Positions 4,348 through 54,230 of a DNA stretch of 64,000 bases are shown piece by piece. Below the pieces are notes generated by a model. It made no database searches, was not told the origin of the DNA, and saw only the letters and a list, made by a program, of their open reading frames with translations. This stretch comes from an uncultured Pseudomonadota bacterium (lineage in GTDB: Bacteria > Pseudomonadota > Gammaproteobacteria > Acidiferrobacterales > UBA6901). Each line of letters begins with the position of its first letter. Position 1 is the first letter of the stretch. The translations under genes were made by a program, and so were the position numbers. The DNA is taken from positions 165,488 to 229,487 of the forward strand of contig CAVOQN010000006.1 in assembly GCA_963698375.1 (NCBI GenBank), written 5' to 3'.

Positions 4348-7300
4348 ATGGCAAGGAATTCTTCTGGCACGCATGCGTGCCACGAAAGTCTTGTGCGCTT
4401 GACGTTCGTCACAGCTGTCTTCGCATTTCTTTTCATTCCGAATTCGTATGCTGCCGCGCCTTGCGATCCTGCCGCCGGACAGATTGCGAGTGTGGAAGGC
4501 AAGATTGAAATCCAACGTGGCGTCGACGCACGTTGGGAGACGGTCAAGTTGAAAGACACCCTGTGCGAGGGTGATTCATTGCGGGCCGCCGAACGCAGCC
4601 GCGCGACGATTGCACTGGCGAATCAGGCAGTCTTCCGCATCGATCAAAACAGCACCATTCGCCTGACCAATATCAGCAGCAAGCCCGAGGAGCGCTCGTT
4701 CCTGAACCTTCTGAAGGGAGCGGTTCAGTCGTTCAGCCGCAAGCCGCGTCAGTTCGAAGTCAGCACCCCCTACCTGAACGGTTCTATCGAGGGCACCGAG
4801 TTCGTCATTCGCGTGACCGAGAATCAGACCATTCTTACGGTTTTAGAAGGCACGGTGCGGGCGGCCAATGAACAGGGGAGCGTAACGGTTCCTTCCGGAC
4901 AGGCGGTCGCCGCCGAGGCCGGCAAGGCACCACAATCGCTTACCGTAGTGCGCCCGCGCGACGCCGCCCAGTGGACGCTTTACTATCCGCCGGTATTGGA
5001 TCTGACGGATAGCGCCGCTGCACCAGCCTCCTTGCGCGATGCCCAGGAGCACGCGGCCCGCGGTGACTACCCCGCGGCGTTTACCGCGCTGGATGCCGTG
5101 AAGCAGGGTGAGCGTGACGCCCGCTATTCTCTTCTTCGCGCTTCGCTATTACTGTCTGTTGGCCGGATAGACGAGGGGCGTAAGGAGATCGACCGCGCCC
5201 TGGCGCTGGATGCCAATTCCGGTGTGAGCCATGCCCTCAATGCAGTCATTGCCGTAGTATTGAACGAGCGCGACCTGGCCTTGGCGGAAGGCCGCAAGGC
5301 AGTCGAATTGGCGCCGGATTCTGCCGCGGCATACATCGCCTTGTCTTACGCACATCAGGCACGTTTTGACTTGCCTGCGGCCCGCGAAACACTGCTGACG
5401 GCTGTGAAGCGTCAGCCGAAGGATGCCCTGGCCTGGGCACGTCTGGCCGAATTGCAGCTGATGCTCGGCGAACGCAACGAAGCCATTGCCGCAGCCGAGA
5501 AGTCTTCGGCCCTGGCACCTGGCCTGGGACGGGCGCACACAATCCTTGGTTTTGCAGCCCTTTCGGGCTTCCGTGTCGCGGCGGCAACCAAGTCTTTTGA
5601 AAAGGCGATCGCCGCCGATAACGCCGACCCCATGCCGCATCTGGGTCTCGGTCTGGCGCGCATCAATCGCGGTCAACTGGAAGCAGGTCGACGCGAGATT
5701 GAGCTGGCAGTTGGTCTGGATTCGAATAACGCCTTGCTGCGCGCCTATTTGGGCAAAGCCTATTTCGAGGAACGCCGCACGGACATCGACGCCCAGCAGT
5801 TCCAGGTCGCCAAGGAACTCGATCCGCGTGATCCCACGCCATACCTTTACGACGGTATCCGGCTGCAAACCGAGAACCGCCCGGTCGAGGCCGTACAGGC
5901 GTTGGAAGACTCGTCTGACCGCAACGATGATCGTGCCGCTTATCGCGGGCGACTGCTGCTGGACCAGGACCGTGCCGCGCGCGGCACCAGTGTGGCGCGC
6001 GCCTACAGCGACCTCGGTTTCTCGTCGGTGGCTGCCAACGAAGCCACGAATTCCCTGGCGGCGGATCCGAGCAATGCCTCGGCCCATCGCTTCCTGGCCG
6101 ATTCACTGCGTGATGATCCGCGCCGCGAGGTCGCGCGGGTGAGCGAGGAACTGCAGTCGCAATTGTTGCAGGATATTTCGATCTATCCGGTGCAGCCGAG
6201 TGCCGGTGAAACCGGCCTGAACGTGGTGACCGCCGGTGGCCCGGCGAACGCCGGCTTCAATGAATTCACGCCGCTGTTCCAGCGTGATCAGGTGCAGGCG
6301 ACGGTCAGCGCATTCATGGGCGGCCAAAATACCTCCGGTTACGAAGTGGCGGCGTCGGGTCTTTATAAACGCTTTTCCGTGAGTGTCGGCGCCTACGAAT
6401 ACACGAGCGACGGTTTCCGCCCGAACAACGACAACAAGCACTCCGTCAATAACTTCTTTGCCCAGGCCGAGGTGGCCGACGGGTTTAACGTGCAGGTCGA
6501 GCACCGCCATCGCTATTCCGAGAACGGCGATCTCGTCATGCAATTTGACCCGACGACGTTCTATCCGGACGCTCGTCAGAAGCGGGAAATCGAAAGCGAT
6601 CGCATTGGTGCCCGCCTGAACATCGGTCCGCGCTCGACGCTGTTGCTCTCTTCCATATTCTCGGATCGTTCGGAGGATGGCGGACTCACGCTGGTAAATA
6701 TCCCCAACGTTTTCGTCTTCCGCAGGGATTTTACGGTTCGAGAGGACAGCAATCAGCACGAACTGCAGTACCTGTATCGCGGCGATCAGTTCAAGCTTCA
6801 GGCTGGCGCCTCGCGCTCGAGTTCCGATGTGGATACCCTGGATCTGGCATCGTCGACGGTGTGGGTGCCCCTGCCGTCACCGCCGTTCCCCCCGGGCTCG
6901 ACAACGCCGGTCACGAGTGTGATCCCGACCCAGGCGAACAACGAACTGATCGACACGCGCGGCTATCTCTACGGCTACACCCGGTTCCCGTCGGTCGTGC
7001 AATGGACGGTGGGAGCCGGGTATGACAAGCATGAAGAAGATGCCTACAACTACGACGACGCGCAAATCAGCCCCAAGCTGGGCGCCAAGTGGGACATCAC
7101 CAAAGCGGTGGCCTTGCGCGCGGCCTACATCAAGTCCGTCAAGCCGGGCCTGTCGGCCAACCGCACGCTGGAACCGACCCAGGTGGCCGGGTTCAACCAG
7201 ATTTTCGATGACGCGAACGGCACCAAGGCAACACGGTATGGCGCCGGCCTGGATTGGCGCGCGGCGCGCAACGTGTTCACAGGTCTCGAGGCCACCTGGC

Positions 7301-10068: not shown

Positions 10069-10069
10069 A

Positions 10070-10112
10070 ATTCGGCCAGCCCGGCGAGGTGTGGTTGCCG
10101 GAGTCGAGGGGC
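10070..10112 (+). repeat. relic of the 3' end of a Vgb-like beta-propeller gene (left flank of the PhoX-like gene)
   Basis: About 36 nt nearly identical to 40966-41010 (GGCCAGCCCGGCGAGGTGTGGTTGCCGGAGTCGAGGGG; encodes ..GQPGEVWLPES..). Confidence 0.6.
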
Positions 10113-10133
10113 TGGAAGCGGTAATGGAGACAA

Positions 10134-11453
10134 ATGAAAAACGGCCCTGACCTTATATATCTGCTGCTTGCTGCCATGGTCGGTAGCAACACGCATTCCA
10201 TGTCTGTCGCCGATTCGACCGTCGTCAATGGTTCAATGGCGTTTAACCCGATCGCCGGTTCTGCGTACACCGCGCTTACCTCGGATCCCGTCATTCTCTC
10301 CAGCCAGCCGTGGGTCATCCCCGAGGGCTATACGCAGCGCATCATCGCAGACGAAACCAACCTGAATATTTATGCCGGCCCCGACTGGAGCGACATGAAT
10401 GTGGCCAACGAAACCGGCAAACACGCCGGCCGATATTTGTATCGCACCCACGAAGTGCGTCCGAGTTCGAGCAACCCCGGCGCCTACACCGGTGGCGCCG
10501 TGTCGGTGGTGGATCTTAAAACCGGCAAGGCCAGGGTTATGGCGCAGCGTCACGATTGGGAAGCAGTGGATGGACTCGTGTGGTCGCCGTGGGGCACGCT
10601 GCTGTTTGGCGAGGAGACCGGCAACGCCCGGTTGCGCGATCCGGATCATCCGGCGGCGATCCGCGGCCTGATTTACGAAATGAAGCCCGACACGCACGAT
10701 CCGACCCGTGCCGAATGGATAAAGGCGCGACCGATGCTCGGTTCGGTGTCGCATGAAGGCATTGAGCTCGACAGCGAGGGCAATGTGTATGTGATCGACG
10801 AATTCGCCTCGGGCGCGATCTACAAGTTCGTGCCGAAAAAGCACGGTGACCTGAGAGACGGCCAGTTGTACGCCCTAAAGCTTGATGGCAACAGCAACGC
10901 GGATCGCACCGGTCCGGCTACCTGGGTGGCGCTCGACATGGACCGCGTGCAAGTCGATGCGCGCACCGCCGCCGCAAACGCCGGTGCCACCGGCTACGGC
11001 CGCCCCGAGGATCTGGAACGCATCGGCGACAAGCTGTACGTCGCAATCACCAGCGAAGCGCGTGTGCTGTCCATCAGCCTGGGCGGCAAGCCAGTGGTGC
11101 AGAATTTTGTCCGTGCCGGGCTGAATGTCCCGGTCGAGAACCGCTCCGCCGGCATCACCGGTTTCCGCAAACCGGACAACCTGGCCAACGGACCGGACGG
11201 CAACCTCTGGATCGTGGAAGACAACGTCCCAAGTGATCTCTGGGTGGCACTGCCGGACAGCGATGGTGACGGCGCCAGCGATGGCGTGTCTCTGTTCGGT
11301 TCGCTCAAGGACAACGGTGCCGAGGGAACCGGCATCTACTTTGGCAAGGACCCCGACACGTTGTTCGTGAACGTGCAGCACTCGGTCACCGGCAATGACA
11401 AGACCATGGCGATCACGAGTCGCAAGCACCAGATTCCCAGCCGTCCCCGTTAA
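10134..11453 (+). CDS. PhoX/DUF839-like secreted beta-propeller protein, paralog 1
   Basis: ORF. Motifs GRPEDLERIGDKLYVAITSE, NLANGPDGNLWIVEDN and EGTGIYFGKDPDTLFVNVQHS resemble the PhoX C-terminal region. About 80% aa identity by eye to 23415..24737. Confidence 0.75.
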   Translation: MKNGPDLIYLLLAAMVGSNTHSMSVADSTVVNGSMAFNPIAGSAYTALTSDPVILSSQPWVIPEGYTQRIIADETNLNIYAGPDWSDMNVANETGKHAGRYLYRTHEVRPSSSNPGAYTGGAVSVVDLKTGKARVMAQRHDWEAVDGLVWSPWGTLLFGEETGNARLRDPDHPAAIRGLIYEMKPDTHDPTRAEWIKARPMLGSVSHEGIELDSEGNVYVIDEFASGAIYKFVPKKHGDLRDGQLYALKLDGNSNADRTGPATWVALDMDRVQVDARTAAANAGATGYGRPEDLERIGDKLYVAITSEARVLSISLGGKPVVQNFVRAGLNVPVENRSAGITGFRKPDNLANGPDGNLWIVEDNVPSDLWVALPDSDGDGASDGVSLFGSLKDNGAEGTGIYFGKDPDTLFVNVQHSVTGNDKTMAITSRKHQIPSRPR

Positions 11454-11456
11454 ACT

Positions 11457-11504
11457 TGGTTATCGGAGTCGGGGGCGTATAAGCTGGTAGTGATCCGGGA
11501 GTGA
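11457..11504 (+). repeat. relic of the Vgb-like gene 3' end (right flank of the PhoX-like gene)
   Basis: Translates WLSESGAYKLVVIRE*, compared with WLPESGADKLVVIRE* at 40987..41030. Confidence 0.6.
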
Positions 11505-19553: not shown

Positions 19554-20528
19554 CTATGTACAGCACATGTATCGCCACACCGGTGCATACAAGGGCGTCC
19601 CGTCCGGCAGCAGCGGCGTCTTCTCGTCGGTGACAACCGCGCCGTGGGCGTCGTTGTAACTGCCGGTGGACGGCAACGCATCGCTGTGCAGCATGTGCGT
19701 GTTGTTGTAGGGCGCGGCGACGCTGTCGACATCGATCGGCGCGCCATAGTCGGCCAAACCCATCAGCGTCCACGCCGCCAGCTTCGCCGGCAGGTTGTCA
19801 CGGTCGTGGTTGAAGCCAAAGTAGCCAGCGGTCGGGGTCACGTGGTTGCGGTCCTGCCACGGTGCCACGCCATAGCTGTTGCCGTCGCCGGGGGCTGCAA
19901 ACATCAGCACCCGGTCGAGAACATAATACTTCCCGATCACGGCGGCGTGCCCGGCGCCTTGCGAGTGGCCGGAAAACTGCAGGCGTGACCAGAACGGCTG
20001 CCCGTTGTCCAGGTATTGGTCCCAGCCTTCACCCGGCCAGGTCGCGTGCAGGTATTGCAGCAGTTTGATCAGCCGGTTGATGATGGAATTGTTGGCGTTG
20101 ACCGCCACCAGCGTGCTGCGATCGGTACCGTCAATGATCTCGAGGCGAACCCGTTCGTAGCAGGTCAGGTCCGGATCGGTGGCGCACAGATCGATGACCT
20201 CCCAGGAGTTCGGGTAGCGCAAGCCGATGACATGGTTGCCGGCTGCCGCCATCTCCTGCATGTAGCGCTGACTGTTTTCGGGTTTGCCGTAGGAACCCGG
20301 CAAGTGCACCAGCAACCGGCCGCGTGCCACGACGCGCGTGTCGCGGTAGGCGTAGTGGTCGTCGAGCCAGTTGTTGATATTGGTGTCGGTGGCAGCTGGC
20401 GCCACGATGTGTTCGGACAGCGCACCGGCGGGTGGCGCGATGGGGGTGTCGCCACCGCCACCGCTCCCGCCACACCCGGCAATGTTCAACATCACTACCA
20501 AACCGGCAAATCCCGCCTGCCATGACAT
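19554..20528 (-). CDS. lipoprotein, alpha/beta-hydrolase-like (GHSQG)
   Basis: ORF 19554..20846 trimmed to the ATG after GGGAGG. Lipobox LNIAGC. GHSQG nucleophile elbow. Confidence 0.75.
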   Translation of the reverse strand: MSWQAGFAGLVVMLNIAGCGGSGGGGDTPIAPPAGALSEHIVAPAATDTNINNWLDDHYAYRDTRVVARGRLLVHLPGSYGKPENSQRYMQEMAAAGNHVIGLRYPNSWEVIDLCATDPDLTCYERVRLEIIDGTDRSTLVAVNANNSIINRLIKLLQYLHATWPGEGWDQYLDNGQPFWSRLQFSGHSQGAGHAAVIGKYYVLDRVLMFAAPGDGNSYGVAPWQDRNHVTPTAGYFGFNHDRDNLPAKLAAWTLMGLADYGAPIDVDSVAAPYNNTHMLHSDALPSTGSYNDAHGAVVTDEKTPLLPDGTPLYAPVWRYMCCT

Positions 20529-22345: not shown

Positions 22346-22561
22346 ACGGCTGAACCTCCCACACCAGAAATAGCCGTCTCCAATCAGAAGCGGCCAAGGC
22401 ATCAGATGTTTGCGTTGACACACTCGACCCGCGCCGTGATGATTCAACAAGCCGGCAAGGAGAATATTAAGAAGAAACTGTTACGAGCCGGCCTCCGTCC
22501 GAAGGGAGAGTTCCGCATGCGCACGAGCACTCATGTTCTGCTGGCAGCGGCAAAAAAACCC

Positions 22562-22611
22562 GGGTCAGAGAGGAATTGTTGCTAATATTAGAAAATATTC
22601 CTCTCTGACCC
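22562..22611. repeat. 50-nt palindromic repeat, GGGTCAGAGAGG family
   Basis: GGGTCAGAGAGGAAT-N20-ATTCCTCTCTGACCC. Related copies at 44950, 45825 and 52796. Confidence 0.8.
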
Positions 22612-22657
22612 TGATTACCCAGTCCCCTCACGACGTAGTCAACGAAACAACACAGCA

Positions 22658-23239: not shown

Positions 23240-23414
23240 AAAAATTTCACTTGTTCGTCATATGCCTGCCATGCAGGCAGGCATGTCCCCGGCTCGCTCC
23301 GGCGCGCGCCGCGGCGGCGCCTGAGCCGATTTAATGAACAGGTAACAAACGGCCACTAGAGTTCCTGTCGCAGTGCGCACCCGCACCCCAAACCTTTGCT
23401 TACCGGGAGACAAA

Positions 23415-24737
23415 ATGAACAGGAAATCCTTGCTTGCCGCCGCGATCAGTGCCGTCGTGGTTTCCGCCGCCGTTGCCGATTCGACCGTCGTCAAGGGCCC
23501 GATCGCATTCAACCCGATCGCCGCCTCCGCGTACGCGGAGCTGACCACCGATCCGGTCATCCTCAACAGCCAGCCGTGGGTTATTCCCCAGGGCTTTTCG
23601 CAGCGCATCGTGTCCGACGAAAACAACCTGAATATTTATGCCGGCTCCGACTGGAACGACATGAACACGGTCAATGAGACCGGGAAACATGCCGGCCGAT
23701 ACATGTACCGCACTCATGAAGTGCGTCCGGACACCAGCAACCTCGGCGCGTACACCGGCGGTGCGGTGTCGGTGGTGGACCTGAAGACCGGCGAGGCCAG
23801 GCTTGTGGTGCAGCGCCTCGATTGGGAAGCCCTCGATGGCATCGTCTGGACGCCGTGGGGCACGGTGCTGTTTGCCGAGGAAACCGGCAGCGCCGTGTTT
23901 GCCGACCCGGATTATCCGGCCGCGATCCGCGGCCTGGTCTACGAGATGAAGCTCGACCGGAGGGACCCGACCCGCGCCGAATGGGTCAAGGTGCGTCCGA
24001 TGCTCGGTTCGGTGTCGCACGAAGGCATTGAATTCGACAGCGAAGGCAACGTGTACGTAATTGATGAAACCAGCCCAGGCGCAATCTTCAAGTTTGTGCC
24101 GAAGCACTATGGCGACCTGAGCGATGGACAGCTGTACGCGCTGAAGGTGGACGACAGCGCCAACGGTGATCGCGTCGGCCCGGCCGAATGGGTGGCGCTC
24201 GACATGAACCTGGCGCCGATGGATGCACGCACTGCCGCCGCCAATGTCGGCGCTACCGGCTACGGCCGCCCCGAGGACCTGGAGCGCATCGGCAACACGC
24301 TGTACGTCGCGATTACCAGCGAGGCGCGCGTGCTGTCAATCAGCCTCGGCAACACGCCGGTGGTGAAGAACTTCGTCAAGGCCGGCCTGAATGTCCCGGT
24401 GGAGAATCGCACGGCCGGCATCACCGGCTTCCGCAACCCTGACAACCTCGCGAACGGACCGGACGGCAAGCTCTGGATTGTAGAAGACAATGTGCCGAGT
24501 GATATCTGGGTGGCACTGCCGGACAAGGACGGCGACGGCGTCAGCGACGGCGTTTACCTGTTCGCCACGCTCAAGGATAACGGCGCCGAAGGCACCGGCA
24601 TCTACTTCGGCAAGGACCCGCACACCCTGTTCGTGAACGTGCAGCACTCGGCCACCGGCAATGACAAGACCATGGCGATTACCAATCGTCAACGCGGTCA
24701 TGGTGGCGATGACGACGATTATCACGTCGGCCGTTAA
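23415..24737 (+). CDS. PhoX/DUF839-like secreted beta-propeller protein, paralog 2
   Basis: ORF 23373..24737. Signal peptide MNRKSLLAAAISAVVVSAAVA. Colinear with 10134..11453. Confidence 0.75.
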   Translation: MNRKSLLAAAISAVVVSAAVADSTVVKGPIAFNPIAASAYAELTTDPVILNSQPWVIPQGFSQRIVSDENNLNIYAGSDWNDMNTVNETGKHAGRYMYRTHEVRPDTSNLGAYTGGAVSVVDLKTGEARLVVQRLDWEALDGIVWTPWGTVLFAEETGSAVFADPDYPAAIRGLVYEMKLDRRDPTRAEWVKVRPMLGSVSHEGIEFDSEGNVYVIDETSPGAIFKFVPKHYGDLSDGQLYALKVDDSANGDRVGPAEWVALDMNLAPMDARTAAANVGATGYGRPEDLERIGNTLYVAITSEARVLSISLGNTPVVKNFVKAGLNVPVENRTAGITGFRNPDNLANGPDGKLWIVEDNVPSDIWVALPDKDGDGVSDGVYLFATLKDNGAEGTGIYFGKDPHTLFVNVQHSATGNDKTMAITNRQRGHGGDDDDYHVGR

Positions 24738-24818: not shown

Positions 24819-24915
24819 GCCCAGCGAGCCTGCGGCCGTTTCATCTGAAAAATATCATCGCGCCAAAATCACACTGATCAACGCAATCGCTACCTCTGCA
24901 AATTCCGGATTGGAC

Positions 24916-25533
24916 TTATAAATAATTGCTGGAGTCCACCGGCCGGAAGTAGTTGCCAATCGCCGCCACATGGCGGTGATCGGTGCCGCAGCAGCCGCCG
25001 ACCACGCGCAGTTTCGGCAGCAGTGTGCCGAGCGCGCGGTATTCGTGTCCCAGTTCCACCGGGTTGCCGGCATCGAGGTCGGTGCTTTCGTCGAGTTCGG
25101 CATGGCTGCGTTTCGAGGCATTGGCGCGCAGCCCGCGAATGCGCTGCGTCCACGCGCCGCCATTTTTCAGCTCGCGCTCGAAGTGCGTGGGGTGTGCGCA
25201 GTTGATCATGAAGTAAGCCGCGTAGCCGCCGGTCTCGGCGTCGGTGCGCTCGATCGCGCGTTGCAGCGTGTCACCGCTCGGCAACTTGCCGTCGGTTTCG
25301 AGCGTGAACGAAATCACCACTGGCATCTGCGCGTCGCGCGCCGCCACGCGCGTGTCGCGGTAGGCGTAGTGGTCGTCGAGCCAGTTGTTGATATTGGTGT
25401 CGGTGGCAGCTGGCGCCACGATGTGTTCCGCCAGTGAACCGCCGATTGGGCTGCCCGGATTGTTGCTTCCGCCGCCACAGCCGGACAGGGCCAGCATCAT
25501 CACCAGACCAATAATCAGCAATTGTAAAGACAT
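24916..25533 (-). CDS. chimeric ORF: lipoprotein signal/N-terminus fused in frame to the C-terminal half of a homocysteine S-methyltransferase paralog
   Basis: The N-terminus MSLQLLIIGLVMMLALSGC...AEHIVAPAATDTNINNWLDDHYAYRDTRV matches 19554..20528. The C-terminus DAQMPVVISFTLETDG...GGCCGTDHRHV matches 32196..32626. Confidence 0.6.
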   Translation of the reverse strand: MSLQLLIIGLVMMLALSGCGGGSNNPGSPIGGSLAEHIVAPAATDTNINNWLDDHYAYRDTRVAARDAQMPVVISFTLETDGKLPSGDTLQRAIERTDAETGGYAAYFMINCAHPTHFERELKNGGAWTQRIRGLRANASKRSHAELDESTDLDAGNPVELGHEYRALGTLLPKLRVVGGCCGTDHRHVAAIGNYFRPVDSSNYL

Positions 25534-32093: not shown

Positions 32094-32195
32094 CTATTGT
32101 CTTGTGTCTTGCAGGCGTATATCGGCATGCACGCTGCCCTGAAAATCGCCAAACCGTTGCATGTATTCAATGATCAGCGACGACCGGATCGGGCT

Positions 32196-33158
32196 TCATA
32201 AAAAACTGCTGGAGTGCACCGGCCGGAAGTAGTTGCCAATCGCCGCCACATGGCGGTGATCGGTGCCGCAGCAGCCGCCGATCACGCGCAGTTTCGGCAG
32301 CAACTTGCCAAGCGCGCGGTACGCGTGTCCCAGCTCCACCGGGTTGCCGGCATCGAGGTCGGTGCTTTCGTCGAGTTCGGCATGGCTGCGTTTCGAGGCA
32401 TTGGCGCGCAGCCCGCGAATGCGCTGCGTCCACGCGCCGCCATGTTTCAGCTCGCGCTCGAAGTGCGTGGGGTGCGCGCAGTTGATCATGAAGTAGGCCG
32501 GGTAGCCGCCGGTGTCGGCGTCGGTGCGCTCGATCGCGCGTTGCAGCGTGTCGCCGCTCGGCAGCTTGCCGTCGGTTTCGAGCGTGAACGAAATCACTAC
32601 CGGCATCTGCGCATCGCGCGCCGCCAGCACAATGCCGATCGCCTCCTCGACATAGGTCATGGTGAACGCCGCCACCAGATCGGCGTCGGTCTGCGCGAAG
32701 GTTTCAATCTGCGGCGCGTGGTAGGCGCGCGCCTCTTCCACCGACATGCGCGCATCGACGCGGTAGCCGTCGCCGCGCGGGCCGAGGTTGCCGCTGATCG
32801 GCATCGGTGATTGCGCGGTTTCGAACGCATCGCGGATTTCCAGCATCAGGCCAATCGCCTTGCGGTTGGCGTCGGCCAGCGCGACCGCGTCGTAGCCGAG
32901 TTTGGCCGCCCAGTCCGGGTTGGCGCGCCAGGTGGGAGCTTCCAGTACCAGCCCCATGCCCTGGTCGCGGGCAATGCCGGCATAGCAGCGATAATAATCG
33001 CGCAGCCGTTCGAAACCGGCATCGTCCTTGAGCAGGTCGAAGGACGCGAAATACGGCAGGTCGAGCCCGTCGTGGAAAATCAGTGTGGTTTCGAGGCCGC
33101 CGTCGGTGAGGAACAGCTGGTCGCGAAGTTGTGGGAGATGCTCGCGGTATTTGCTCAT
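32196..33158 (-). CDS. homocysteine S-methyltransferase family protein
   Basis: ORF 32196..33278 trimmed to MSKYREHL. Motifs LFLTDGGLETTLIF and C-terminal GGCCGT. Confidence 0.85.
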   Translation of the reverse strand: MSKYREHLPQLRDQLFLTDGGLETTLIFHDGLDLPYFASFDLLKDDAGFERLRDYYRCYAGIARDQGMGLVLEAPTWRANPDWAAKLGYDAVALADANRKAIGLMLEIRDAFETAQSPMPISGNLGPRGDGYRVDARMSVEEARAYHAPQIETFAQTDADLVAAFTMTYVEEAIGIVLAARDAQMPVVISFTLETDGKLPSGDTLQRAIERTDADTGGYPAYFMINCAHPTHFERELKHGGAWTQRIRGLRANASKRSHAELDESTDLDAGNPVELGHAYRALGKLLPKLRVIGGCCGTDHRHVAAIGNYFRPVHSSSFL

Positions 33159-40071: not shown

Positions 40072-41030
40072 ATGCGCAAGGAAACCCGGGCTTTACTGGC
40101 CGTCCTGCTGCTCGTTACCAGCACGCTGTGCGCCGCGTTCGAAATCAAGGAATACCCGGTTCCGAAAGGCGCGCACCCGCACGATGTCGCGCCGGCCGCC
40201 GATGGCGGCGTGTGGTACACCGCCCAGCATCAGGGCGCGCTCGGGTATCTCGACCCGAAAACCGGCAAGACCCGCCACATCCCGCTCGGCAATGGTTCCC
40301 GTCCACATGGGGTTATCGTGGGGCCGGATGGCGCCGCGTGGATCACCGATTCCGGTCTCAACGCCAATCGTGCGCGTCGACCCGAAAACCGACAAGGTCG
40401 AAGTCTTCCCGCTGCCCAAGGGCACGCCGAACGTCAACCTCAACACCGCCACGTTCGATAACGCCGGCATCCTGTGGTTCACCGGCCAGAACGGTTACTA
40501 CGGCAGCTTCGATCCCAAAACCAAAAATAACCAAGGTGTTCGAGGCCCCGCAAGGCCGCGGGCCGTATGGCATCTGCACCGCGCCGGATGGCAGCGTGTA
40601 TTACGCCTCGCTCGCCGGCAGCCACATCGCGCGCATCGATACCAAAACCGGCAAGGCCACGGTCATCGAGCCGCCCACGCCGTACCAGGGCGCGCGCCGC
40701 GTGTGGGCGGATTCACAAAACCGAATCTGGGTCAGCGAATGGATCTCCGGCCAGGTGTCGCTGTACGACCCGAAAACAAAAAAATGGAAAGAATGGAAAG
40801 CCCCGGGCGACAACCCGCAGGTGTATGCGGTGTACGTGGACAACAAGGACATTGTCTGGCTGTCGGATTTCGGCGCCAACGCCATGCTGCGCTTCGACCC
40901 GAAGACCGAAAAGTTCACCGTGATCCCGAGCAAGAGCGGCAACGCGCGCGTGCGCCAGATTCTCGGCCGGCCCGGCGAGGTGTGGTTGCCGGAGTCGGGG
41001 GCGGATAAGTTGGTGGTGATACGGGAGTGA
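40072..41030 (+). pseudogene. Vgb (streptogramin lyase)-like beta-propeller protein with two homopolymer frameshifts
   Basis: Three ORF segments (40072.., 40184.., 40128..41030) read through as FEIKEYPVPKGAHPHDVAPAADGGVWYT...IVRVDPKT...KITKVFEAPQGRGPYGI... Breaks at AA 40366-67 and A5 40523-27. Confidence 0.75.
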
Positions 41031-41117
41031 TGGAATAAGAGTGACTAGCCAGAAAATAAATCTGTCCCGGTTTTAGTCCCGATTCTGTTTTTTATGACGG
41101 CATGTTTTTTTATCAGA

Positions 41118-41150
41118 CCTTAATGCCGGGTTGCAAACCCGGCATTAAGG
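41118..41150. repeat. perfect 15-bp inverted repeat (CCTTAATGCCGGGTT-GCA-AACCCGGCATTAAGG)
   Basis: Read directly from the sequence. Lies 37 nt upstream of the NYN gene start. Confidence 0.8.
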
Positions 41151-41186
41151 AGGTCTAATAAAAGTTGGTGCTCAAGGAGAAACACT

Positions 41187-41730
41187 GTGGCCGAACTCGT
41201 ATATGTCGACAATTCCAACGTGTTCATCGAAGGCGAACGCGTTATGGCTGTTGAAACAGGGATTGCGATGAACATTTACGACGCTATGAACAACCGAATT
41301 CTGGACAACTCCTACAAGATTGATTTCGGTCGTTTGCACGAATTTCATAGCCGGTAAAGATCGGTCCAATATTAAGAGATGCATGCTATTCGGCAGCCGT
41401 CCTCCCCCCAACGATTCAATTTGGCAAATCGCCAGAAAAGCAGGCTTCGAGGTAATCACCGAAGATCGAAATGTTGCAAACAAAGAAAAGAAGATCGACA
41501 CAGGAATCGTCGCGGCTATGACGAAAGACGCCTATACCATCGCAGACAAAGCTAATGATACGATTACCCTCGTCGCGGGTGACGCAGATTTCGTACCGTC
41601 GATTCGAATGCTCAAGGATGACGGATTCAATATAGAAGTAGCGTTCTGGGATCATGCTTCCAGAGAGTTGCGGGAGGTATGTTCTAGATTCATCTCCCTT
41701 AACCCAATACTCAAGCATTTAGCCTATTAG
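41187..41730 (+). pseudogene. NYN (LabA-like) domain protein, one frameshift
   Basis: GTG 41187 after AAGGAGA gives VAELVYVDNSNVFIEGE...RLHEF. Continues in ORF 41320..41730 (..LVAGDADFVPSIRMLKDDGFNIEV). Break at TTT 41343-45. Confidence 0.7.
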
Positions 41731-41811
41731 GCTTGAGCGCTAACGAGTCAATCGCGCTATGCTAAAAGTGTCGAGGCTATTTAACTTGATGGAAAAACCA
41801 GTATTCCCTTA

Positions 41812-42002
41812 GACAACAAGGTTTTCGTCTAGATGTCGGATTTCGGCGCGAATGCCATGCTGCGCTTCGACCCGAAGACCGAAAAGTTCACCGTGATCCC
41901 GAGCAAGAGCGGTAACGCGCGCGCGCCAGATTCTCGGCCGGCCCGGCGAGGTGTGGTTACCGGAGTCGGGGGGCGAATAGGTTGGTGGTGGTGAGGGAGT
42001 GA
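41812..42002 (+). repeat. degenerate duplicate of the Vgb-like gene 3' end
   Basis: Aligns base for base with 40839..41030 apart from a few substitutions, a 2-nt deletion and a premature TAG. Confidence 0.8.
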
Positions 42003-42138
42003 CTGATAGTTTTGAATCTATTATTTCGAATGGCGTAACAAAGTATTACAGAGCTTTCGGGCCACTTGACTGCCTCACCGTACTTTACCATTATGAACCG
42101 AAGTATCCCAAAGGACTAAAGATCTTCCATGTACGTCT

Positions 42139-42585
42139 ATGACAATGAAACAGGCTGAAGGCAACACGGCGATGAAGTGTCTCGCACCCCTTGTCGGGAT
42201 ATTTTCCGGATCGATGCTTGGCTGGGCACTGTTTTTTCTATCGCCGGATTTCGCATCGGAAAAAATCACTGTGGGCGATATTTGCGCGCGACTATATGGC
42301 TTGGCATTCGGATTTTATGGTTGGGGTATTGCCATTGTTATCGGCCAAAACAAGAGTCTTTTTTGCGGTGGCTTCAATGAGTTTATGAGTGAAGATCGTT
42401 TAAGGATAAGCGGGCTTGCAGTGGTTTCTGTCGTGCTTCTCATAGTAGATGCGGGTTTGTTAGTGAAAGGCCACTACGAGATTTATTCAGTAATCTGGGT
42501 TATTTTGATGTTTGGATTTCTCGGCGAGGTTGGCTGGGCAAATCCGTTATATATACCTAAAAAGTTTATCGACTTTTTTATTTGA
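42139..42585 (+). CDS. hypothetical membrane protein (AT-rich)
   Basis: 148-aa ORF with about 4 hydrophobic segments. I recognise no family. Confidence 0.55.
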   Translation: MTMKQAEGNTAMKCLAPLVGIFSGSMLGWALFFLSPDFASEKITVGDICARLYGLAFGFYGWGIAIVIGQNKSLFCGGFNEFMSEDRLRISGLAVVSVVLLIVDAGLLVKGHYEIYSVIWVILMFGFLGEVGWANPLYIPKKFIDFFI

Positions 42586-42624
42586 GTGAATGACTGTGTT
42601 TGTCTGGAAAACGGATACTGTCTT

Positions 42625-43077
42625 ATGAAAAAGATGATTATTGCCAAACGCAACGCACGTGTACTCGGTCTGGTTGTCGGTATCATGTGGCTGACCACGT
42701 GCCTAACCTCAATGCTTTTGGTTCTAGATTTAATTCTAAGCCGAAGTGTGACCATTTATGGTTTGGTTTACCCATTGGTCTTGGCCTCGTGCGTGATAGC
42801 AGGTTTTGTCGGCGCTACCGTATTGTCGAAGCTGCTTGCGTCGTTATTTACGGTTCCCAGCGCACCAAGTGTCCGGACTATTTCTTCACCGAATAAGTAC
42901 ACTCTCGCCGGAAGTCCGGCAGCCTTTTGTTCGATAGTAGCTATTGCAGTGATTGCACCGGTTCATTTCGTTGGCGGTGTGGCGTTATCTTCCGATACGA
43001 CATCCGCCCCTATTTACCTCAGTGATGACACACAGGCAACTCCTAGCCCATCGGAAGTAAAAAATTTCGGTAATTAA
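42625..43077 (+). CDS. hypothetical membrane protein (AT-rich)
   Basis: ORF 42586..43077 trimmed to MKKMIIAKRN. Hydrophobic segments are present. Confidence 0.55.
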   Translation: MKKMIIAKRNARVLGLVVGIMWLTTCLTSMLLVLDLILSRSVTIYGLVYPLVLASCVIAGFVGATVLSKLLASLFTVPSAPSVRTISSPNKYTLAGSPAAFCSIVAIAVIAPVHFVGGVALSSDTTSAPIYLSDDTQATPSPSEVKNFGN

Positions 43078-43096
43078 TCTGAGCGCTACTTAAAAC

Positions 43097-43513
43097 ATGT
43101 CAAACGATAAAAAATATCCATCGGTTATTTGGTCCATCCTTGCGGATGACGTCAGACAGGAAACGGGCTCCAAGATATCCATCATTGGCGCTTATACTGG
43201 CAACGATATAACAGTTACGCCAACACAGCAGTTGCCGACAGGTCAATCGATTGGATTTCCGTTGACAGTATTGTATGTATTCGAAGGTGTCGAAGGTGAG
43301 CACGAAGCGCGGCTAAACATCTTCGATCCATTAGGTAAAGCAGTTGGGAATGGAGTTCTGAAGTTTAATCCGGGCAAGGTGAGTACTGTTAACGCGATAT
43401 TTAAGTTACCAAATTTTGTTGTATCTGAGTCTGGTCAATATACCGCCAAACTTTCATTTGGTGATCAAAAACCATACGAATTCAAGTTCAAGGTTAAAAT
43501 CGCACAAGCGTAA
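43097..43513 (+). CDS. hypothetical soluble protein (AT-rich)
   Basis: 138-aa ORF with beta-rich composition. I recognise no family. Confidence 0.6.
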   Translation: MSNDKKYPSVIWSILADDVRQETGSKISIIGAYTGNDITVTPTQQLPTGQSIGFPLTVLYVFEGVEGEHEARLNIFDPLGKAVGNGVLKFNPGKVSTVNAIFKLPNFVVSESGQYTAKLSFGDQKPYEFKFKVKIAQA

Positions 43514-43516
43514 GAA

Positions 43517-43661
43517 TTAAAGGGGTCAGTACCCTTTTAGCCTCGCAGTACCGCAGAATCCAGTCAGATTGAACGGCCACGCCATTTCATTGCACGTGCT
43601 GTAACAACGCCTGTTCGACCTCGTCCAGCGAAAACTTGCCCACCTCGACAACCGTGGCCCG
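43517..43661. repeat. 145-nt direct repeat, copy 1 (contains the 3' end of a lost minus-strand gene)
   Basis: About 90% identical to 44794..44939. The minus strand reads ..ATVVEVGKFSLDEVEQALLQHVQ*. Confidence 0.8.
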
Positions 43662-43668
43662 CAACTAT

Positions 43669-43742
43669 GGGGTCAGGTCTTGCAAGTTAACTTCCACTAA
43701 AATCAAATCATGGCGCAAATTGATTGCTCAAGACCTGACCCC
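43669..43742. repeat. palindromic repeat, GGGGTCAGGTCTTG family
   Basis: GGGGTCAGGTCTTG-N46-CAAGACCTGACCCC. Confidence 0.75.
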
Positions 43743-43816: not shown

Positions 43817-44797
43817 ATGAAAGCAGTTGTGTATGAGAAATACGGGCCGCCCGAGGTTCTTCAAATTCGGGAGGTTGAAAAGCCCGTACCCAAGGACAAT
43901 GAAGTCCTGATAAAAACACATGCGACAACGGTTACATCCGGGGACTGGAGGGTGCGGAGTCTCAATGTGCCTGTCGGCTTCGGGCTCATCACGCGTTTGG
44001 TATTTGGAATTACAAGACCAAGGCAACCCATACTCGGGACAGAGCTGGCGGGTGTCGTTGAATCGGTCGGCAACCATGTAAGCAAATTCAAGGTCGGTGA
44101 CCAGGTTTTTGCGTTCAGCGATGCCGCCATGGGTTGTTATGCGGAGTACAAATGCATGCCACAAGACGGGGCGATGGCATTAAAACCGGCCAACCTGACC
44201 TTTGACGAAGCCGCCGCCATCTCGTTTGGCGGCACAACGGCATTGAATTTCCTCAGGAGAGGAAAACTTCAGCGCGGAGAAAGCGTACTCGTCATTGGGG
44301 CGTCCGGCGGGGTAGGCACCGCAGTGGTGCAGCTTGCCAGGCACTTCGGCGCCGACGTGACCGGGGTGTGCAGTAGCGCGAACGTGGAATTGGTGAGGTC
44401 ACTGGGCGCCCGTCATGTTATCGACTACACCAAAGAAGACTTCACGCAGAATGGCAAAACCTATGACATCATTGTCGATACCGCCGGCACGGCGCCGTTC
44501 TCCCGCAGCAAGGCTTCATTAAAGGCAGGCGGCCGCCTGCTACTGGTTCTGGCTGGGCTGCCAGACATGCTTCTGATTCCATGGGGGGCAATGACAAGCA
44601 ACAAGAAGATCATCGCCGGGCCAGCGTCCGGACGCGCGGAAGATCTGCGTTTTCTCGCGAGTCTGGCTGAGACCGGTGAATTCAAACCTGTCATTGATCG
44701 GCGCTATCCGTTTGAGCAGATCGCCGAGGCACACCGCTACGTCGATTCCGGACGCAAGAGGGGAAACGTCGTCATCACGCTGAAACATGACAATTAA
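43817..44797 (+). CDS. NADPH:quinone oxidoreductase / zinc-type alcohol dehydrogenase (MDR) family protein
   Basis: MKAVVYEKYGPPEVL..., GASGGVGTAVVQLA Rossmann motif, AAGGAGA RBS. Confidence 0.9.
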   Translation: MKAVVYEKYGPPEVLQIREVEKPVPKDNEVLIKTHATTVTSGDWRVRSLNVPVGFGLITRLVFGITRPRQPILGTELAGVVESVGNHVSKFKVGDQVFAFSDAAMGCYAEYKCMPQDGAMALKPANLTFDEAAAISFGGTTALNFLRRGKLQRGESVLVIGASGGVGTAVVQLARHFGADVTGVCSSANVELVRSLGARHVIDYTKEDFTQNGKTYDIIVDTAGTAPFSRSKASLKAGGRLLLVLAGLPDMLLIPWGAMTSNKKIIAGPASGRAEDLRFLASLAETGEFKPVIDRRYPFEQIAEAHRYVDSGRKRGNVVITLKHDN

Positions 44798-44939
44798 AGG
44801 GGTCAGCACCCTTATAGCCTCGCAATACCGCAGTACCCGGTTCAGATTGAACGGCCCCGCCGTTTCATTGCACGTGCTGTGACAACGCCTGTTCGACCTC
44901 ATCCAGCGAAAACTTACCCACCTCGACGACCGTGGCCCG
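44794..44939. repeat. 145-nt direct repeat, copy 2
   Basis: See 43517..43661. Both copies begin at the stop codon of the preceding gene. Confidence 0.8.
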
Positions 44940-44949
44940 AAAATAATGT

Positions 44950-44998
44950 GGGTCAGAGAGGATTATTCCCTATAGTAGGGAACATTGTTCTCTAACCC
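44950..44998. repeat. palindromic repeat, GGGTCAGAGAGG family (degenerate)
   Basis: GGGTCAGAGAGGATT...TTGTTCTCTAACCC. Confidence 0.65.
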
Positions 44999-45036
44999 GG
45001 TTATCCGTTCGTACTCCACCTGGCCACTGACCTGTC

Positions 45037-45816
45037 ATGCTGTTAGGAAGTAATCGACTTCTCTTCACCGCCGTGTTTGTTTCCGTGGCCTTGCATGCCA
45101 TGGCGTTTGTGCTGTCTGGCCATCTGTTCAAACTCACCGGCAAGCCAGAAGTCCTCGAACTGAAGAACGAGATTATCCTTACGGAGGTGTTGCCGCCTGC
45201 GGACAATCCGGTCACGACACCCGTCACGAAGAACCAACCGGCCTCGCAGGCAGCCCCGCCTGCCCCGACGGCGGAAGCATGGGCCTTTGCGGGCCGGTAC
45301 ACGCTCAAAAACAGCAAGGGCTACCGGTATAACTGGGGACAACAGGTTCGCAGCATGATGGGCACCGCCGTCGATGGGCCCGATCAGGGCCTCGTCCGGT
45401 TTCGTCTGGAAATTGCACCCGACGGGACGTTGGCAAAACTGGAAACGCTGTGGACCACCTCTGCCGCCGCCGAGCGGCTGGCTCGCCAGGCCATCCGCAA
45501 CCTGCCGCCGTTGCCGCCCACCCCGACTGGCAAGCCGTTGATCTTTGATCGAACGATTTCGTTCCTGTCCGATACCACGGAAAGCCCGCCGACCTACAAG
45601 GACGACTGTGATCCGGTGCCACCCGCGTTCGAGAGCCCGTACACCTGGGACGGCAAAGAACCGTGGGTGCCGCCCAAACCGAAACCTGTTGTAAAGCCCG
45701 ACCCGCAGGCCATGGAAGAGTGCCTCAAGCAACTGCCGCAGGATTCGATCGAGGCAGAACTCGGGCGCAACGAGGACCTGTACGGACGATGGGGGACCCG
45801 CGAGTCGGAGCGGTAG
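45037..45816 (+). CDS. TonB C-terminal domain family protein
   Basis: N-terminal TM segment, Pro-rich linker, and a C-terminal segment GLVRFRLEIAPDGTLAKLE...AERLARQAIRNLPPLPP. Confidence 0.7.
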   Translation: MLLGSNRLLFTAVFVSVALHAMAFVLSGHLFKLTGKPEVLELKNEIILTEVLPPADNPVTTPVTKNQPASQAAPPAPTAEAWAFAGRYTLKNSKGYRYNWGQQVRSMMGTAVDGPDQGLVRFRLEIAPDGTLAKLETLWTTSAAAERLARQAIRNLPPLPPTPTGKPLIFDRTISFLSDTTESPPTYKDDCDPVPPAFESPYTWDGKEPWVPPKPKPVVKPDPQAMEECLKQLPQDSIEAELGRNEDLYGRWGTRESER

Positions 45817-45824
45817 AAAAAACC

Positions 45825-45874
45825 GGGTCAGAGAGCAATTCTTTCCAATATAAGCAACAATTCCTCTCTGACCC
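45825..45874. repeat. 50-nt palindromic repeat, GGGTCAGAGAG family
   Basis: GGGTCAGAGAGCAATT...AATTCCTCTCTGACCC. Confidence 0.8.
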
Positions 45875-45987
45875 AGATTTTCCTAAATGCTACGAGCAGG
45901 CATGGACCAAACTAAAGTTGGCCCGTGGCCAAGCCGTGAGGCTTTGCAGCGCAGGTATAGGGCAAATGAAACTATGACCAAACTAAA

Positions 45988-46023
45988 GGGGTCGGAGTGA
46001 TTTAACTTTAATCACTCCGACCC
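45988..46023. repeat. hairpin repeat, GGGGnCGGAG family (possible bidirectional terminator)
   Basis: GGGGTCGGAGTGATT-TAACTTT-AATCACTCCGACCC flanked by A-rich and T-rich runs. Lies between convergent genes. Confidence 0.75.
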
Positions 46024-46053
46024 TTATTAACTTTTTAAACTTGCGTTCGATCC

Positions 46054-46491: not shown

Positions 46492-46837
46492 AGTCCAGCT
46501 CCTCGTTGGTGGTTGTTGGGAATCAAATCCCGTTGTTCCGAAGGGAACATGAGGGAGACGGGCGCGAAGGGGCTAATATTTCAGAAGAATTATTACTTAT
46601 AACGATTAATACCATTGATGGTATCGGGATGCGAGGCAAGCCAAACCGTGCCGCTATCCGGATGCTCCGAAAGGAGGGGAAAGATTGATTTTCTGCACCA
46701 AACGATGAAAGTGGACGCTAATTCAAGGTGTCAGGAGTTAGAATTATAAAGAGTCGTAGTGATGTATCGTTAATCACTCCGACCCTTTTAATTCGACGCT
46801 TTAATCGTTTGCTATTAACGTTTTTCCACTTTTCCTT

Positions 46838-52795: not shown

Positions 52796-52852
52796 TGTCA
52801 GAGAGAAATTCTTTCTAATACAAGAGCAATTGCTCTCTGTCCTCGTTTCATT
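52796..52852. repeat. palindromic repeat, GTCAGAGAG family (degenerate)
   Basis: CTGTCAGAGAGAAATTC...CAATTGCTCTCTGTCC. Confidence 0.65.
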
Positions 52853-53214: not shown

Positions 53215-53267
53215 AAACAAGAAACAAGTCGTGAATGGATTCTGAATCCACTCCACAGGAAAACCAA

Positions 53268-54230
53268 ATGCCAACGGCACGCTTTCGAAATGCAGCACTG
53301 GTGATAGTGGGCGCAGTGGTTGTCGGGCTGGGCGTAGTGACGGCTTCGTATCAACGCGACATTCAACAGGCCCGCGAGCGGGTGGCGACTGGCAGCCGCA
53401 TTGCCCAGACGCCCTGCGGTCCGATTGAATACGCCGTGGTGGGTGACGGTCCGCCAGTGCTGGTGGTGCATGGCGCCGGCGGTGGATTCGACCAGGGACT
53501 GGATTTCGCGACGCCACTGGCTGGACGCGGCTTTCGCCTTATCGCCATGTCACGCTTCGGTTATTTGCGCACGCCGCTGCCGACGGATGCCTCGCCGCCG
53601 GCGCAGGCCGATGCGCATGCCTGCCTGCTGGACGCACTCGGCATCAAGCGCGTCGGCGTTTTCGGCGCTTCGGCCGGTGCCCCGTCTTCCCTGCAGTTTG
53701 CCTTGCGGCACCCGCAACGAATCAGCGCACTTGTGTTGCTCGTTCCGGCCACTTATGTACCGCGACCCGGCGACGCACCGTCGGTGACCAAGCCCAGTGG
53801 CCTGGAATTCGTGATTGATATGGGCCTGCGGTCGGATTTTCTGTTTTGGGCAGCTGCGCGGCTCGCGCCTCAAACCTTGACCCGCGCAATACTCGCGACA
53901 CCGCCGGCCGTGGTGGCGGGCGCCAGCCCTGAGGAGCAGGCACGCGTGCAGATGATGCTGGACCACATCCTGCCGATTTCGCAGCGCCGGTTCGGCCTGC
54001 TGAACGAGGCCGCCGTTATCCCTTCCATCCAGCGCTATGCGCTCGAACGCATCCGCACCCCGACCTTGACGATGAGTTTTGCTGACGACCTGTTTGGTAC
54101 CTATGAAGCTGCCCGCTACACGGCCGAGCAGATACGCGGCGCTCACTTTGTCGGCTACCCGAGTGGTGGACACCTGGCAGTTGGACGCCAGCAAGAAGTA
54201 TGGAACGAGATTGCGCGTTTTCTGAAATAG
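53268..54230 (+). CDS. alpha/beta hydrolase
   Basis: ORF 53235..54230. Motifs VVHGAGGG and GASAGA nucleophile elbow. N-terminal TM segment. Confidence 0.8.
   Translation: MPTARFRNAALVIVGAVVVGLGVVTASYQRDIQQARERVATGSRIAQTPCGPIEYAVVGDGPPVLVVHGAGGGFDQGLDFATPLAGRGFRLIAMSRFGYLRTPLPTDASPPAQADAHACLLDALGIKRVGVFGASAGAPSSLQFALRHPQRISALVLLVPATYVPRPGDAPSVTKPSGLEFVIDMGLRSDFLFWAAARLAPQTLTRAILATPPAVVAGASPEEQARVQMMLDHILPISQRRFGLLNEAAVIPSIQRYALERIRTPTLTMSFADDLFGTYEAARYTAEQIRGAHFVGYPSGGHLAVGRQQEVWNEIARFLK

Follow-up and report, generated by a model that had tools for sequence, protein, structure and literature searches.

A stretch of 64,000 nucleotides from an uncultured Pseudomonadota bacterium (contig CAVOQN010000006.1; the whole stretch is hereafter called the window) carries, directly behind a Vgb-like gene, a low-GC unit with a single NYN/LabA-like gene, bracketed by two direct copies of the 3′ end of that Vgb-like gene. 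The architecture recurs with other cargo, both in related contigs and at a second locus. In this study we favor, with about even confidence, the explanation that the NYN unit is a non-autonomous cassette in a hotspot island grown by Campbell-type recombination in the 3′ segment of the gene, with host recombination as the catalyst. The features on which the argument turns are the following (positions are those of the window).

40072 to 41030, plus strand: host gene, encoding a Vgb_lyase-family beta-propeller protein with a signal peptide (Pfam PF24684, E 2e-30).
40839 to 41030, plus strand: repeat copy A, the last 192 nt of the Vgb-like gene and its 3′ end in use (BLAST, tail alignment).
41031 to 41087, plus strand: conserved post-stop stretch, delimited by the similarity of other tails and including the core of a motif, M, at 41049 to 41074 (GAAAATAAATCTGTCCCGGTTTT).
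41118 to 41150: perfect 15-bp hairpin with a 3-nt loop (arms 41118 to 41132 and 41136 to 41150; fold z-score -4.0).
41187 to 41730, plus strand: NYN/LabA-like cargo gene, 180 amino acids after one extra A near 41341 is dropped (Pfam PF01936).
41812 to 42002, plus strand: repeat copy B, a displaced, decaying, 5′-truncated 3′ end of the gene (90.7% identity to A, premature TAG, two indels).

After correction of frameshifts, the Vgb-like protein matches PF24684 with 106.1 bits (curated cut-off 50), which by homology places the gene in the Vgb_lyase family, with a putative enzymatic function. As assembled, +1 frameshifts lie near 40366 and 40528 in this gene and near 41341 in the NYN gene. Because each of the three is an extra A beside an A in comparison with the relatives, they are probably assembly errors and not signs of pseudogenization. 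A BLAST search of 40701-41040 against the window returns 41812-42002 at 90.7% identity over 193 columns with 3 gap columns (E 6e-72). The right edge of both A and B is exactly the TGA stop codon, and the gaps consist of a 2-nt deletion in B at 40946-47 of A and one extra G in a G-run of B. Read in the frame of A, copy B meets a premature TAG at 41830-41832. When 36 aligned tails (copies of the gene's 3′ end) were compared, 14 of the 19 differences between A and B were private to B, so that B is the copy in decay; copy A has the state of the relatives at nearly all of the differing positions. Since about 7% of B consists of private changes, the event that gave rise to the NYN arrangement in this window is old.

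The spacer between the copies (41031-41811) is 781 bp long, with a GC content of 0.45-0.48 against 0.61-0.64 in the Vgb-like gene. Its NYN protein matches PF01936 with 68.4 bits (curated cut-off 24.2, E 1.3e-18), covering model positions 16-144 of 145, and PADLOC gave weak partial matches only (E 2e-5). More than 1600 homologs were found, many of them 70-91% identical and exactly 180 amino acids long. They lie in unrelated contexts, among them a Mu-like phage and a Nitrosomonas chromosome, where the gene sits between an ABC transporter and a rotamase. DNA similarity to these loci ends at the ends of the open reading frame (ORF), and a search around them for flanking repeats found none, from which it follows that the A/B repeat belongs to the Vgb locus and not to the NYN gene. 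The imperfect arms of the hairpin reach out to 41105-41163. NYN loci elsewhere lack the hairpin, their DNA similarity beginning at 41170, and the loci fetched for comparison contain no copy of it; a role as a terminator was ruled out, because the hairpin is not canonical on either strand and has no U-run. The original prediction, made from the sequence alone, had thus been right about a repeat of ~190 bp with substitutions, a 2-nt deletion and a premature TAG, and about a low-GC spacer of 781 bp with a 15-bp hairpin and one gene, whose NYN assignment also holds against the profile model.

The same prediction had stated that the element has no integrase, and our searches agree: NYN is the only gene in the unit. 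With XerD, lambda Int and Tn3 resolvase as queries, tblastn gave no match in the window, and no recombinase or transposase Pfam family was present in window ORFs at 41-63 kb and just upstream. The related contigs described below likewise gave no tyrosine or serine recombinase by tblastn. A cognate autonomous element with an integrase was found neither in the window nor in these contigs, which are mostly <10 kb, nor in viral contigs. A scan of the whole window returned no Rfam family and no tRNA; therefore, the site is neither a tRNA or tmRNA attachment (att) site nor a known RNA.

The related contigs (L086-L113, n = 28, ~115 kb) were collected by scanning metagenomes with an exact 24-nt core of the tail, and since they were found by an exact 24-mer, the apparent invariance of that core is inflated. 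All 28 carry the tail, and their Vgb DNA is 82-88% identical to that of the window. Five of them (L094, L101, L102, L104 and L106) have two or three tails each, at least ~1 kb apart, in a pattern of full gene, ~1-kb cargo, 5′-truncated tail, cargo and tail. The order in L102 is full gene, HigB/HigA-like pair, tail, MNT/HEPN pair, tail. L104 runs from zwf through a tail, a LON-domain gene, antitoxin/ParE, a cation-efflux gene and MNT/HEPN to the full gene, followed by HigBA, a tail and restriction-modification genes; the other three are similar. In a Pfam survey of the related contigs (best 25 of 62 families), cargo between tails included Gp49/HTH, antitoxin/ParE, MNT/HEPN, patatin with CD-NTase (cyclic-oligonucleotide-based anti-phage signaling system, CBASS) and DndB-like genes, and Eco57I-type methylase and XhoI restriction-modification genes were also present. 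At least 12 different left junctions between cargo and tail occur, with tails starting from 40655 to 40967. Every tail extends to the stop codon, the last ~65 nt are always kept, and four independent short tails begin within 21 nt of each other (40947-40967).

This phenomenon is lineage-specific. No extra tails and no motif M were found in 80 distant Vgb loci (1.35 Mb). Representative genomes in GTDB hold only distant Vgb orthologs (<=75% protein identity), the best being in an unclassified gammaproteobacterial metagenome-assembled genome and in one assigned to Sulfuricaulis, and plasmid matches to the tail are Vgb orthologs only. Two further kinds of repeat were seen in the relatives. A ~48-nt sequence, GACTGCATGGATGCAGGAGGTAGAGCAACGCATGGAGC.GTTGCCGAGG, is inserted in frame in a HigB-like gene (L094 ~1085-1135, L113 ~1250-1300) and also occurs inside Vgb tails (L101 ~720-770, L112). 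Units resembling repetitive extragenic palindromes, which start with GTAG (GTAGGGTGGGGCCCAGCCCCACC; longer palindromes GTAGGGTGCGC...), flank Vgb and some tails; they lie upstream of Vgb in L095, L098, L102 and L104 and also downstream of some tails.

Within the window, short tails also occur 30 kb from the Vgb gene, where two copies bracket a PhoX-like gene.

10069 to 10133, plus strand: tail copy C, corresponding to the final ~65 nt of the Vgb gene and lying between the stop codon of a major facilitator superfamily (MFS) gene and the start of the PhoX-like gene (BLAST).
11421 to 11504, plus strand: tail copy D, corresponding to the final ~84 nt of the Vgb gene (BLAST, alignment).

Copy C matches copy A at 94.9% identity over 39 nt, and the PhoX-like ORF (10134-11453) reads in frame into D. 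A paralog of the PhoX-like gene lies at 23373-24737; the two are 81.8% identical over 1217 nt (10206-11422 vs. 23472-24688), and this similarity stops at 11422, exactly where D begins. The arrangement is found again in L129, with tail copies on both sides of PhoX (4940-4960 and 6272-6349) and two extra genes upstream, and in part in L130, which has the downstream copy only (6279-6362). The gap from the MFS gene to PhoX varies between L129 and L130, and in L100 a ParE module with a tail lies downstream of the same MFS gene.

What the tails are can be judged from the changes they have accumulated. The partial tails of the relatives keep the Vgb frame without internal stops, save at one doubtful coordinate in L112; the window copies B and D are disrupted. 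The ratio of nonsynonymous to synonymous polymorphism (pN/pS) is 0.29 for pairs of partial tails, 0.31 for pairs of full genes and 0.31 for full-partial pairs; these tails are allelic and were once under selection. Since the pN/pS of the partial tails equals that of full genes, the tails of the relatives are the former working 3′ ends of different alleles, recently displaced, and not old duplicates made in place. Within arrays, a tail and the resident gene end are separated by 4-9 synonymous changes in ~42 sites, about as many as separate alleles of different contigs (pS 0.09-0.21 within arrays vs. 0.22 overall). Divergence of this allelic kind, together with past purifying selection, argues against simple duplication in place in the arrays of the relatives. 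For the HigBA-linked tails at orthologous positions in L102 and L104, 8 nonsynonymous changes were counted versus 2.5 in the adjacent full genes, an excess that fits relaxed constraint after displacement.

Incompatibilities in the four-gamete test (Rm = 14) occur all along the tail, which fits the expectation if homologous exchange is common. The octamer GCTGGTGG (Chi of E. coli) occurs 15 times in the window versus 2.7 expected, 11 of them on the minus strand, with none between 39027 and 52564, the low-GC island. Many tails of the relatives contain it; copy A has GTTGGTGG at that place, the position being a synonymous polymorphism. A requirement for Chi in tail recombination was rejected for this reason.

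Beyond the stop codon, similarity between copies extends for another ~45-50 nt in most relatives, and in many loci the similarity of other tails to copy A reaches 41066-41074. The post-stop stretch in the window contains two 12-nt iterated units (GTCCCGGTTTTA / GTCCCGATTCTG). Motif M has 26 nt, roughly AGGAAAATAAATCTGTC[AC]CnnnTTT, and is often followed by one to three iterated units of 12-16 nt. It occurs 27 times in the 115 kb of related contigs, once in the window and not at all in the 1.35 Mb of distant loci. The motif is enriched at module borders in both orientations, ends a ParE module that has no tail, and abuts arbitrary sequence at Vgb position 40758 in L111 and at codon 45 of a hydrolase gene in L087. 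After copy B, a search for a decayed M gave nothing better than shuffled sequences. The tail with M shows no single-strand structure (folding z-scores of -0.45 and +0.40 on the two strands). Viral contigs gave 14 matches to M, all within unrelated conserved phage genes, and these were set aside as chance. The likeness of an M variant (GGTCTGACGCT) to the Tn3 inverted repeat was treated as coincidence, its orientation contradicting the junction data. A 70-bp unit with two inverted copies of M and a 27-nt spacer holding a perfect TATAAT was seen in two different contexts (L093 1424-1493, L101 ~7170-7250) and could be either a unit like a miniature inverted-repeat transposable element or an operator-promoter unit.

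Under the explanation we favor, a mosaic low-GC island would have grown at the 3′ end of the Vgb-like gene, with the last 65-190 nt of the gene, usually plus ~45 nt after the stop codon, as the landing pad. Incoming DNA bearing that segment would recombine with it by a single Campbell-type crossover, which host homologous recombination (RecA) would make on the shared tail. The gene would retain a complete 3′ end (A), the cargo would land directly behind it, and a 5′-truncated second copy (B) would be left on the far side, where it would be unselected and decay. Each module of cargo and tail would bring its own homology arm to the hotspot, and repetition would build the arrays. Toxin-antitoxin and defense cargo may be what persists between recombination-prone direct repeats that otherwise delete. 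We infer the single crossover, the circular or repeat-ended intermediate and RecA as the catalyst; host homologous recombination is favored because no recombinase was found in the 64-kb window or the related contigs. A homology that is long and variable in length, and incompatibilities spread along the tail, fit host recombination as well.

Several observations weigh against this explanation. The original prediction had proposed Campbell-type integration of a small circle carrying a copy of the gene's 3′ end. The kept gene end, the displaced second copy and the recurrence in relatives speak for the integration, while within this window the states shared by A and B are explained by an incoming tail no better than by local duplication or by gene conversion at a later time. 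A search for the spacer in phages and plasmids had been suggested; BLAST of the 781 bp against phage and plasmid collections gave no DNA match, none was found in the fetched loci, and the window has no second copy of 41031-41811, so that the 781 bp are not a recurring mobile unit. If RecA had free access to them, direct repeats of 190-376 bp would be expected to be unstable. The cargo of the relatives begins at a near-fixed point, about 45-50 nt after the stop codon and next to M with its iterated units, and this fixed start, together with the four short tails at 40947-40967, looks more like the work of a dedicated site-specific system. The four-gamete signal could in part be recurrent mutation at synonymous sites. 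Finally, the first joining of each new cargo to a tail lacks an explanation.

The rival that survives best, which we regard as a tentative possibility, is a dedicated site-specific system acting in trans, with the gene end plus M as its att site (an analog of attB/attC or attTn7). A tyrosine recombinase or a Tn7-like transposase would be encoded elsewhere or by a helper element, and the NYN and toxin-antitoxin modules would be decayed cis-mobilizable remnants or att-bounded cassettes. The near-identical post-stop point at which many cargos start agrees with such a system, although the 5′ starts of the tails range over 310 nt. Motif M, being lineage-specific, enriched at borders, present in both orientations and accompanied by iterated units, resembles the arm sites of a recombinase or the binding sites of a transposase, and its place at the end of the tail-less ParE module and against arbitrary sequence (L111, L087) points the same way. 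However, there is no M after B in the window, and the tail with M has neither single-strand structure nor a core of the GTTRRRY type. The four short tails start directly left of a 53-nt stretch of the tail without informative variation; the invariance of the core is, as said, partly due to the sampling by an exact 24-mer. Alleles seem to switch in the last ~25 nt: outside this segment L109 and L113 hardly differ, and A and B differ at 5 of 31 positions at the end versus 8 of 138 in the central part, a weak statistic (p = 0.065). Yet apparent exchange is spread along the tail, and the association of the last 31 nt with the flank downstream was no more than marginal in a Mantel test (r 0.21, p 0.08). 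Against such a system, too, no recombinase or transposase was found in the 64-kb window or in the ~115 kb of related contigs, where the Pfam evidence covers the best 25 of 62 families.

A local origin, which we consider improbable, would start from a tandem duplication from 40839 on, or from the loss of the 5′ part of a second Vgb paralog, after which foreign NYN DNA replaced the interval. It draws its strength from the window itself. Copies A and B are each other's closest relatives, differ at 8 positions only in their central 138 nt, and share three states (40865, 40934 and 40938) that are absent from all relatives (23-29 related tails compared); therefore, the sequence of B either originated in the lineage of the window or is the product of conversion by A. 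The other differences of B are mostly private decay, and the 781-bp unit was seen nowhere else (phage, plasmid or fetched loci). Against this, the last 15 nt of B are the VVVRE allele of the genes of other lineages (it is present in L094, L109 and L093) and not the allele of A. Two events, duplication and replacement, are needed where one insertion would do, and no second copy of the spacer was found after B or elsewhere in the window. Within the arrays of relatives, tails have diverged to the degree seen between alleles of separate contigs and bear the mark of past purifying selection, and tail copies also lie at unlinked loci.

It is highly improbable that the truncated tails are silent donors, of the pilE/pilS type, that vary the C-terminal blade of the beta-propeller by gene conversion, with the genes between them incidental: the relatives do keep direct, in-frame, stop-free 5′-truncated copies with conserved sequence after most of them, and the alleles look mosaic along the tail, but the tail peptides are conservative and not hypervariable (pN/pS as in full genes), the tails are single and separated by selfish or defense cargo, tails of 65-84 nt and unlinked tails fused to other genes would be poor donors, and B and D in the window are disrupted. 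The chance of an assembly artefact, in which strain variants of the gene end were joined in tandem around an unrelated low-GC contig, seems slighter still; the three probable +1 A errors and the apparent origin of the window from a metagenome-assembled contig would allow it, whereas several projects, using several assemblers, independently recovered this architecture, the private substitutions and premature stop of B are unlike strain-level variation, and C and D are conserved in position (L129, L130).

The NYN unit had been described as an unusually small element of ~0.8 kb. It is not self-contained but a single module within a larger mosaic island: beyond B, low GC goes on to ~44 kb and, in patches, to ~53 kb. 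Two features follow directly.

42065 to 43513, plus strand: the next low-GC module, with a promoter-like site at 42066-94 and a DUF6941 gene at 43097-43513 (homology to L128, Pfam).
43515 to 43676 and 44792 to 44956: a second gene-tail instance, 165-bp direct repeats (89.7%) that bracket an ADH_zinc gene at 43817-44797.

The first also contains two small membrane ORFs (42139-42585 and 42625-43077). Homology to L128 (80% at the amino acid level) begins at 42065, and the context upstream in L128 is different; the sequence following B is itself a portable low-GC module and not old chromosome. Both copies of the repeats flanking the ADH_zinc gene read, on the minus strand, ...RATVVEVGKFSLDEVEQAL.QHVQ*, a 3′-end fragment of a gene otherwise absent from the window. 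They have no copy in the fetched loci. This architecture matches the NYN case, with the tail of another gene. The repeat copies also hold a small hairpin.

The extent of the island can be gauged from L087, the closest long relative. There, at 2760-2900, the first ~45 codons of an alpha/beta-hydrolase gene lie 2.2 kb after Vgb and are cut by an inverted motif M; the segment matches 53277-53400 of the window, where the gene occupies 53235-54230. Because only 2.2 kb separate the two genes in L087, the ~12 kb between them in the window are probably all island. Other repeats were noted in the window. High-GC direct repeats lie at 24905-25346 and 32184-32626 (94.6% over 443 nt) and at 20321-20430 and 25335-25444 (92.7% over 110 nt). 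A dispersed palindromic element of ~60 nt, GGGTCAGAGAGGAATT...AATTCCTCTCTGACCC, often stands at module borders; it occurs at 45806-45890, 22546-22616, 52797-52842 and 44945-45002 and, among the relatives, in L087, L093, L099, L101, L109 and L110. It lies immediately before a short tail in L093 and adjoins motif M in L101 and L087. A second hairpin family, GGGGTCGGAGTGATT...AATCACTCCGACCC, is present at 45985-46030 and 46749-46793.

Compared with known systems, the case is closest in logic to the accretion of integrative elements at the 3′ ends of genes, as in cis-mobilizable elements (CIMEs) and composite islands of the staphylococcal cassette chromosome (SCC), and closest in scale and cargo to integron and dif-module arrays. 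The att repeats of known elements have a short, constant length of a few tens of bp. The definition of CIMEs and a three-step scenario of their tandem accretion are given in PMC5704250. Two of three CIME features were found here: A and B flank the unit, with arrays in relatives, and there are no integration or transfer genes inside. The likeness to the CIME and ICESt1-ICESt3 islands at fda of Streptococcus thermophilus is that integration and transfer genes were lost or never present and that repeated insertion at one site builds up tandem composites. The differences are that the repeats here are 65-376 bp with variable 5′ starts, that the units measure only ~1 kb and in many cases consist of one gene or one toxin-antitoxin pair, that tails also occur at unlinked loci, and that the window and the related contigs yielded neither an integrase nor a related autonomous element.

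SCC elements and ccr-less pseudo-SCC elements insert at the 3′ end of rlmH (orfX) in staphylococci, and each restores the gene end; within arrays, copies of the integration site stand between the elements, some of which have no recombinase. SCC repeats are ~15-18 bp, and the CcrAB or CcrC recombinases are usually encoded somewhere in the island. The present case, too, has a hotspot where a conserved protein gene has its 3′ end, but differs in its long tails, in the lack of any recombinase found and in its toxin-antitoxin and defense cargo. Composite SCC islands are the subject of PMC7029136 and PMC12648241. Taken together, long, variable, open-frame tails, ~1-kb units, spread to unlinked loci and the absence of a recombinase from our searches set the case apart from CIME and SCC.

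With integrons and clusters of attC sites lacking an integrase the case shares cassettes of ~1 kb, mostly a single gene or a toxin-antitoxin pair, in one orientation and each followed by a repeated site, with no mobility gene inside. The repeated site here, however, is a fragment of a protein gene and not an imperfect palindrome. An integron attC was ruled out, as there is no hairpin by the folding scores given above and there are no RYYYAAC/GTTRRRY cores. Queries with XerD and lambda Int (tblastn) gave no IntI-type recombinase in the window and L086-L113, where the ends of arrays are partly out of view. Tn7-type insertion would lie at a fixed distance downstream of a conserved gene whose 3′ coding end is recognized; what was observed is a boundary about 32-50 nt after the stop codon in many copies, with the last ~65 nt always kept. 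No Pfam family of the tnsA/B/C or tniQ type was present in the ORFs scanned in the window and the related contigs, and of Tn7-type ends only single copies of M were recognized, with no 5-bp duplications. Motif M resembles what we take to be TnsB sites of Tn7 (AAAATAGATCT), a lead and not a result, with no Tn7 genes found. A dif/Xer site was ruled out on sequence: by eye, M with its left extension shares only GGTG with the 28-bp dif consensus of E. coli (XerC and XerD arms around a 6-bp spacer), from which the dif site of this lineage may differ. In its behavior at module borders M is similar to the sites of pdif modules. According to PMC6449649 and PMC13141974, the pdif modules of Acinetobacter plasmids are small, often carry toxin-antitoxin genes, are bounded by short recombination sites in either orientation and are shuffled between replicons by recombinases encoded elsewhere. 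The setting here is chromosomal, in contrast, and the main repeat is a gene tail. The case thus lacks defining features of integrons, Tn7-like elements and Xer modules in the sequences searched.

Defense hotspots (PMC10121019; PMC10250203) offer another comparison, with a fixed chromosomal position, variable content and many defense and toxin-antitoxin genes. The cargo of hotspots in E. coli is reported (PMC10121019) to be mostly on recognizable mobile elements. By contrast, no mobility genes were seen here, and the modules carry copies of the end of the flanking gene. That they represent a cassette system not described so far, in which small modules each carry the 3′ end of a host gene, with or without M, as a recombination site or homology arm, is a bolder proposal that we consider rather unlikely.

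It is an open question how defense and toxin-antitoxin genes reach hotspots without mobility genes, and the modules described here carry the end of a core gene. A testable route would be for the cargo to come with its own homology or att site, to repair the gene at which it inserts and to leave behind a further landing pad. If the proposal is true, such modules could, without a recombinase of their own, insert wherever a genome contains the gene, restore it, stack into arrays and seed new pads at other loci, and would be in effect an integron analog built on a gene tail. If a recombinase acting in trans is found instead, the tail with M would be a new family of att sites. Should the modules prove to be of this kind, 5′-truncated copies of gene 3′ ends could mark such islands in metagenomes, and the piling up of toxin-antitoxin pairs between recombination-prone repeats would be explained.

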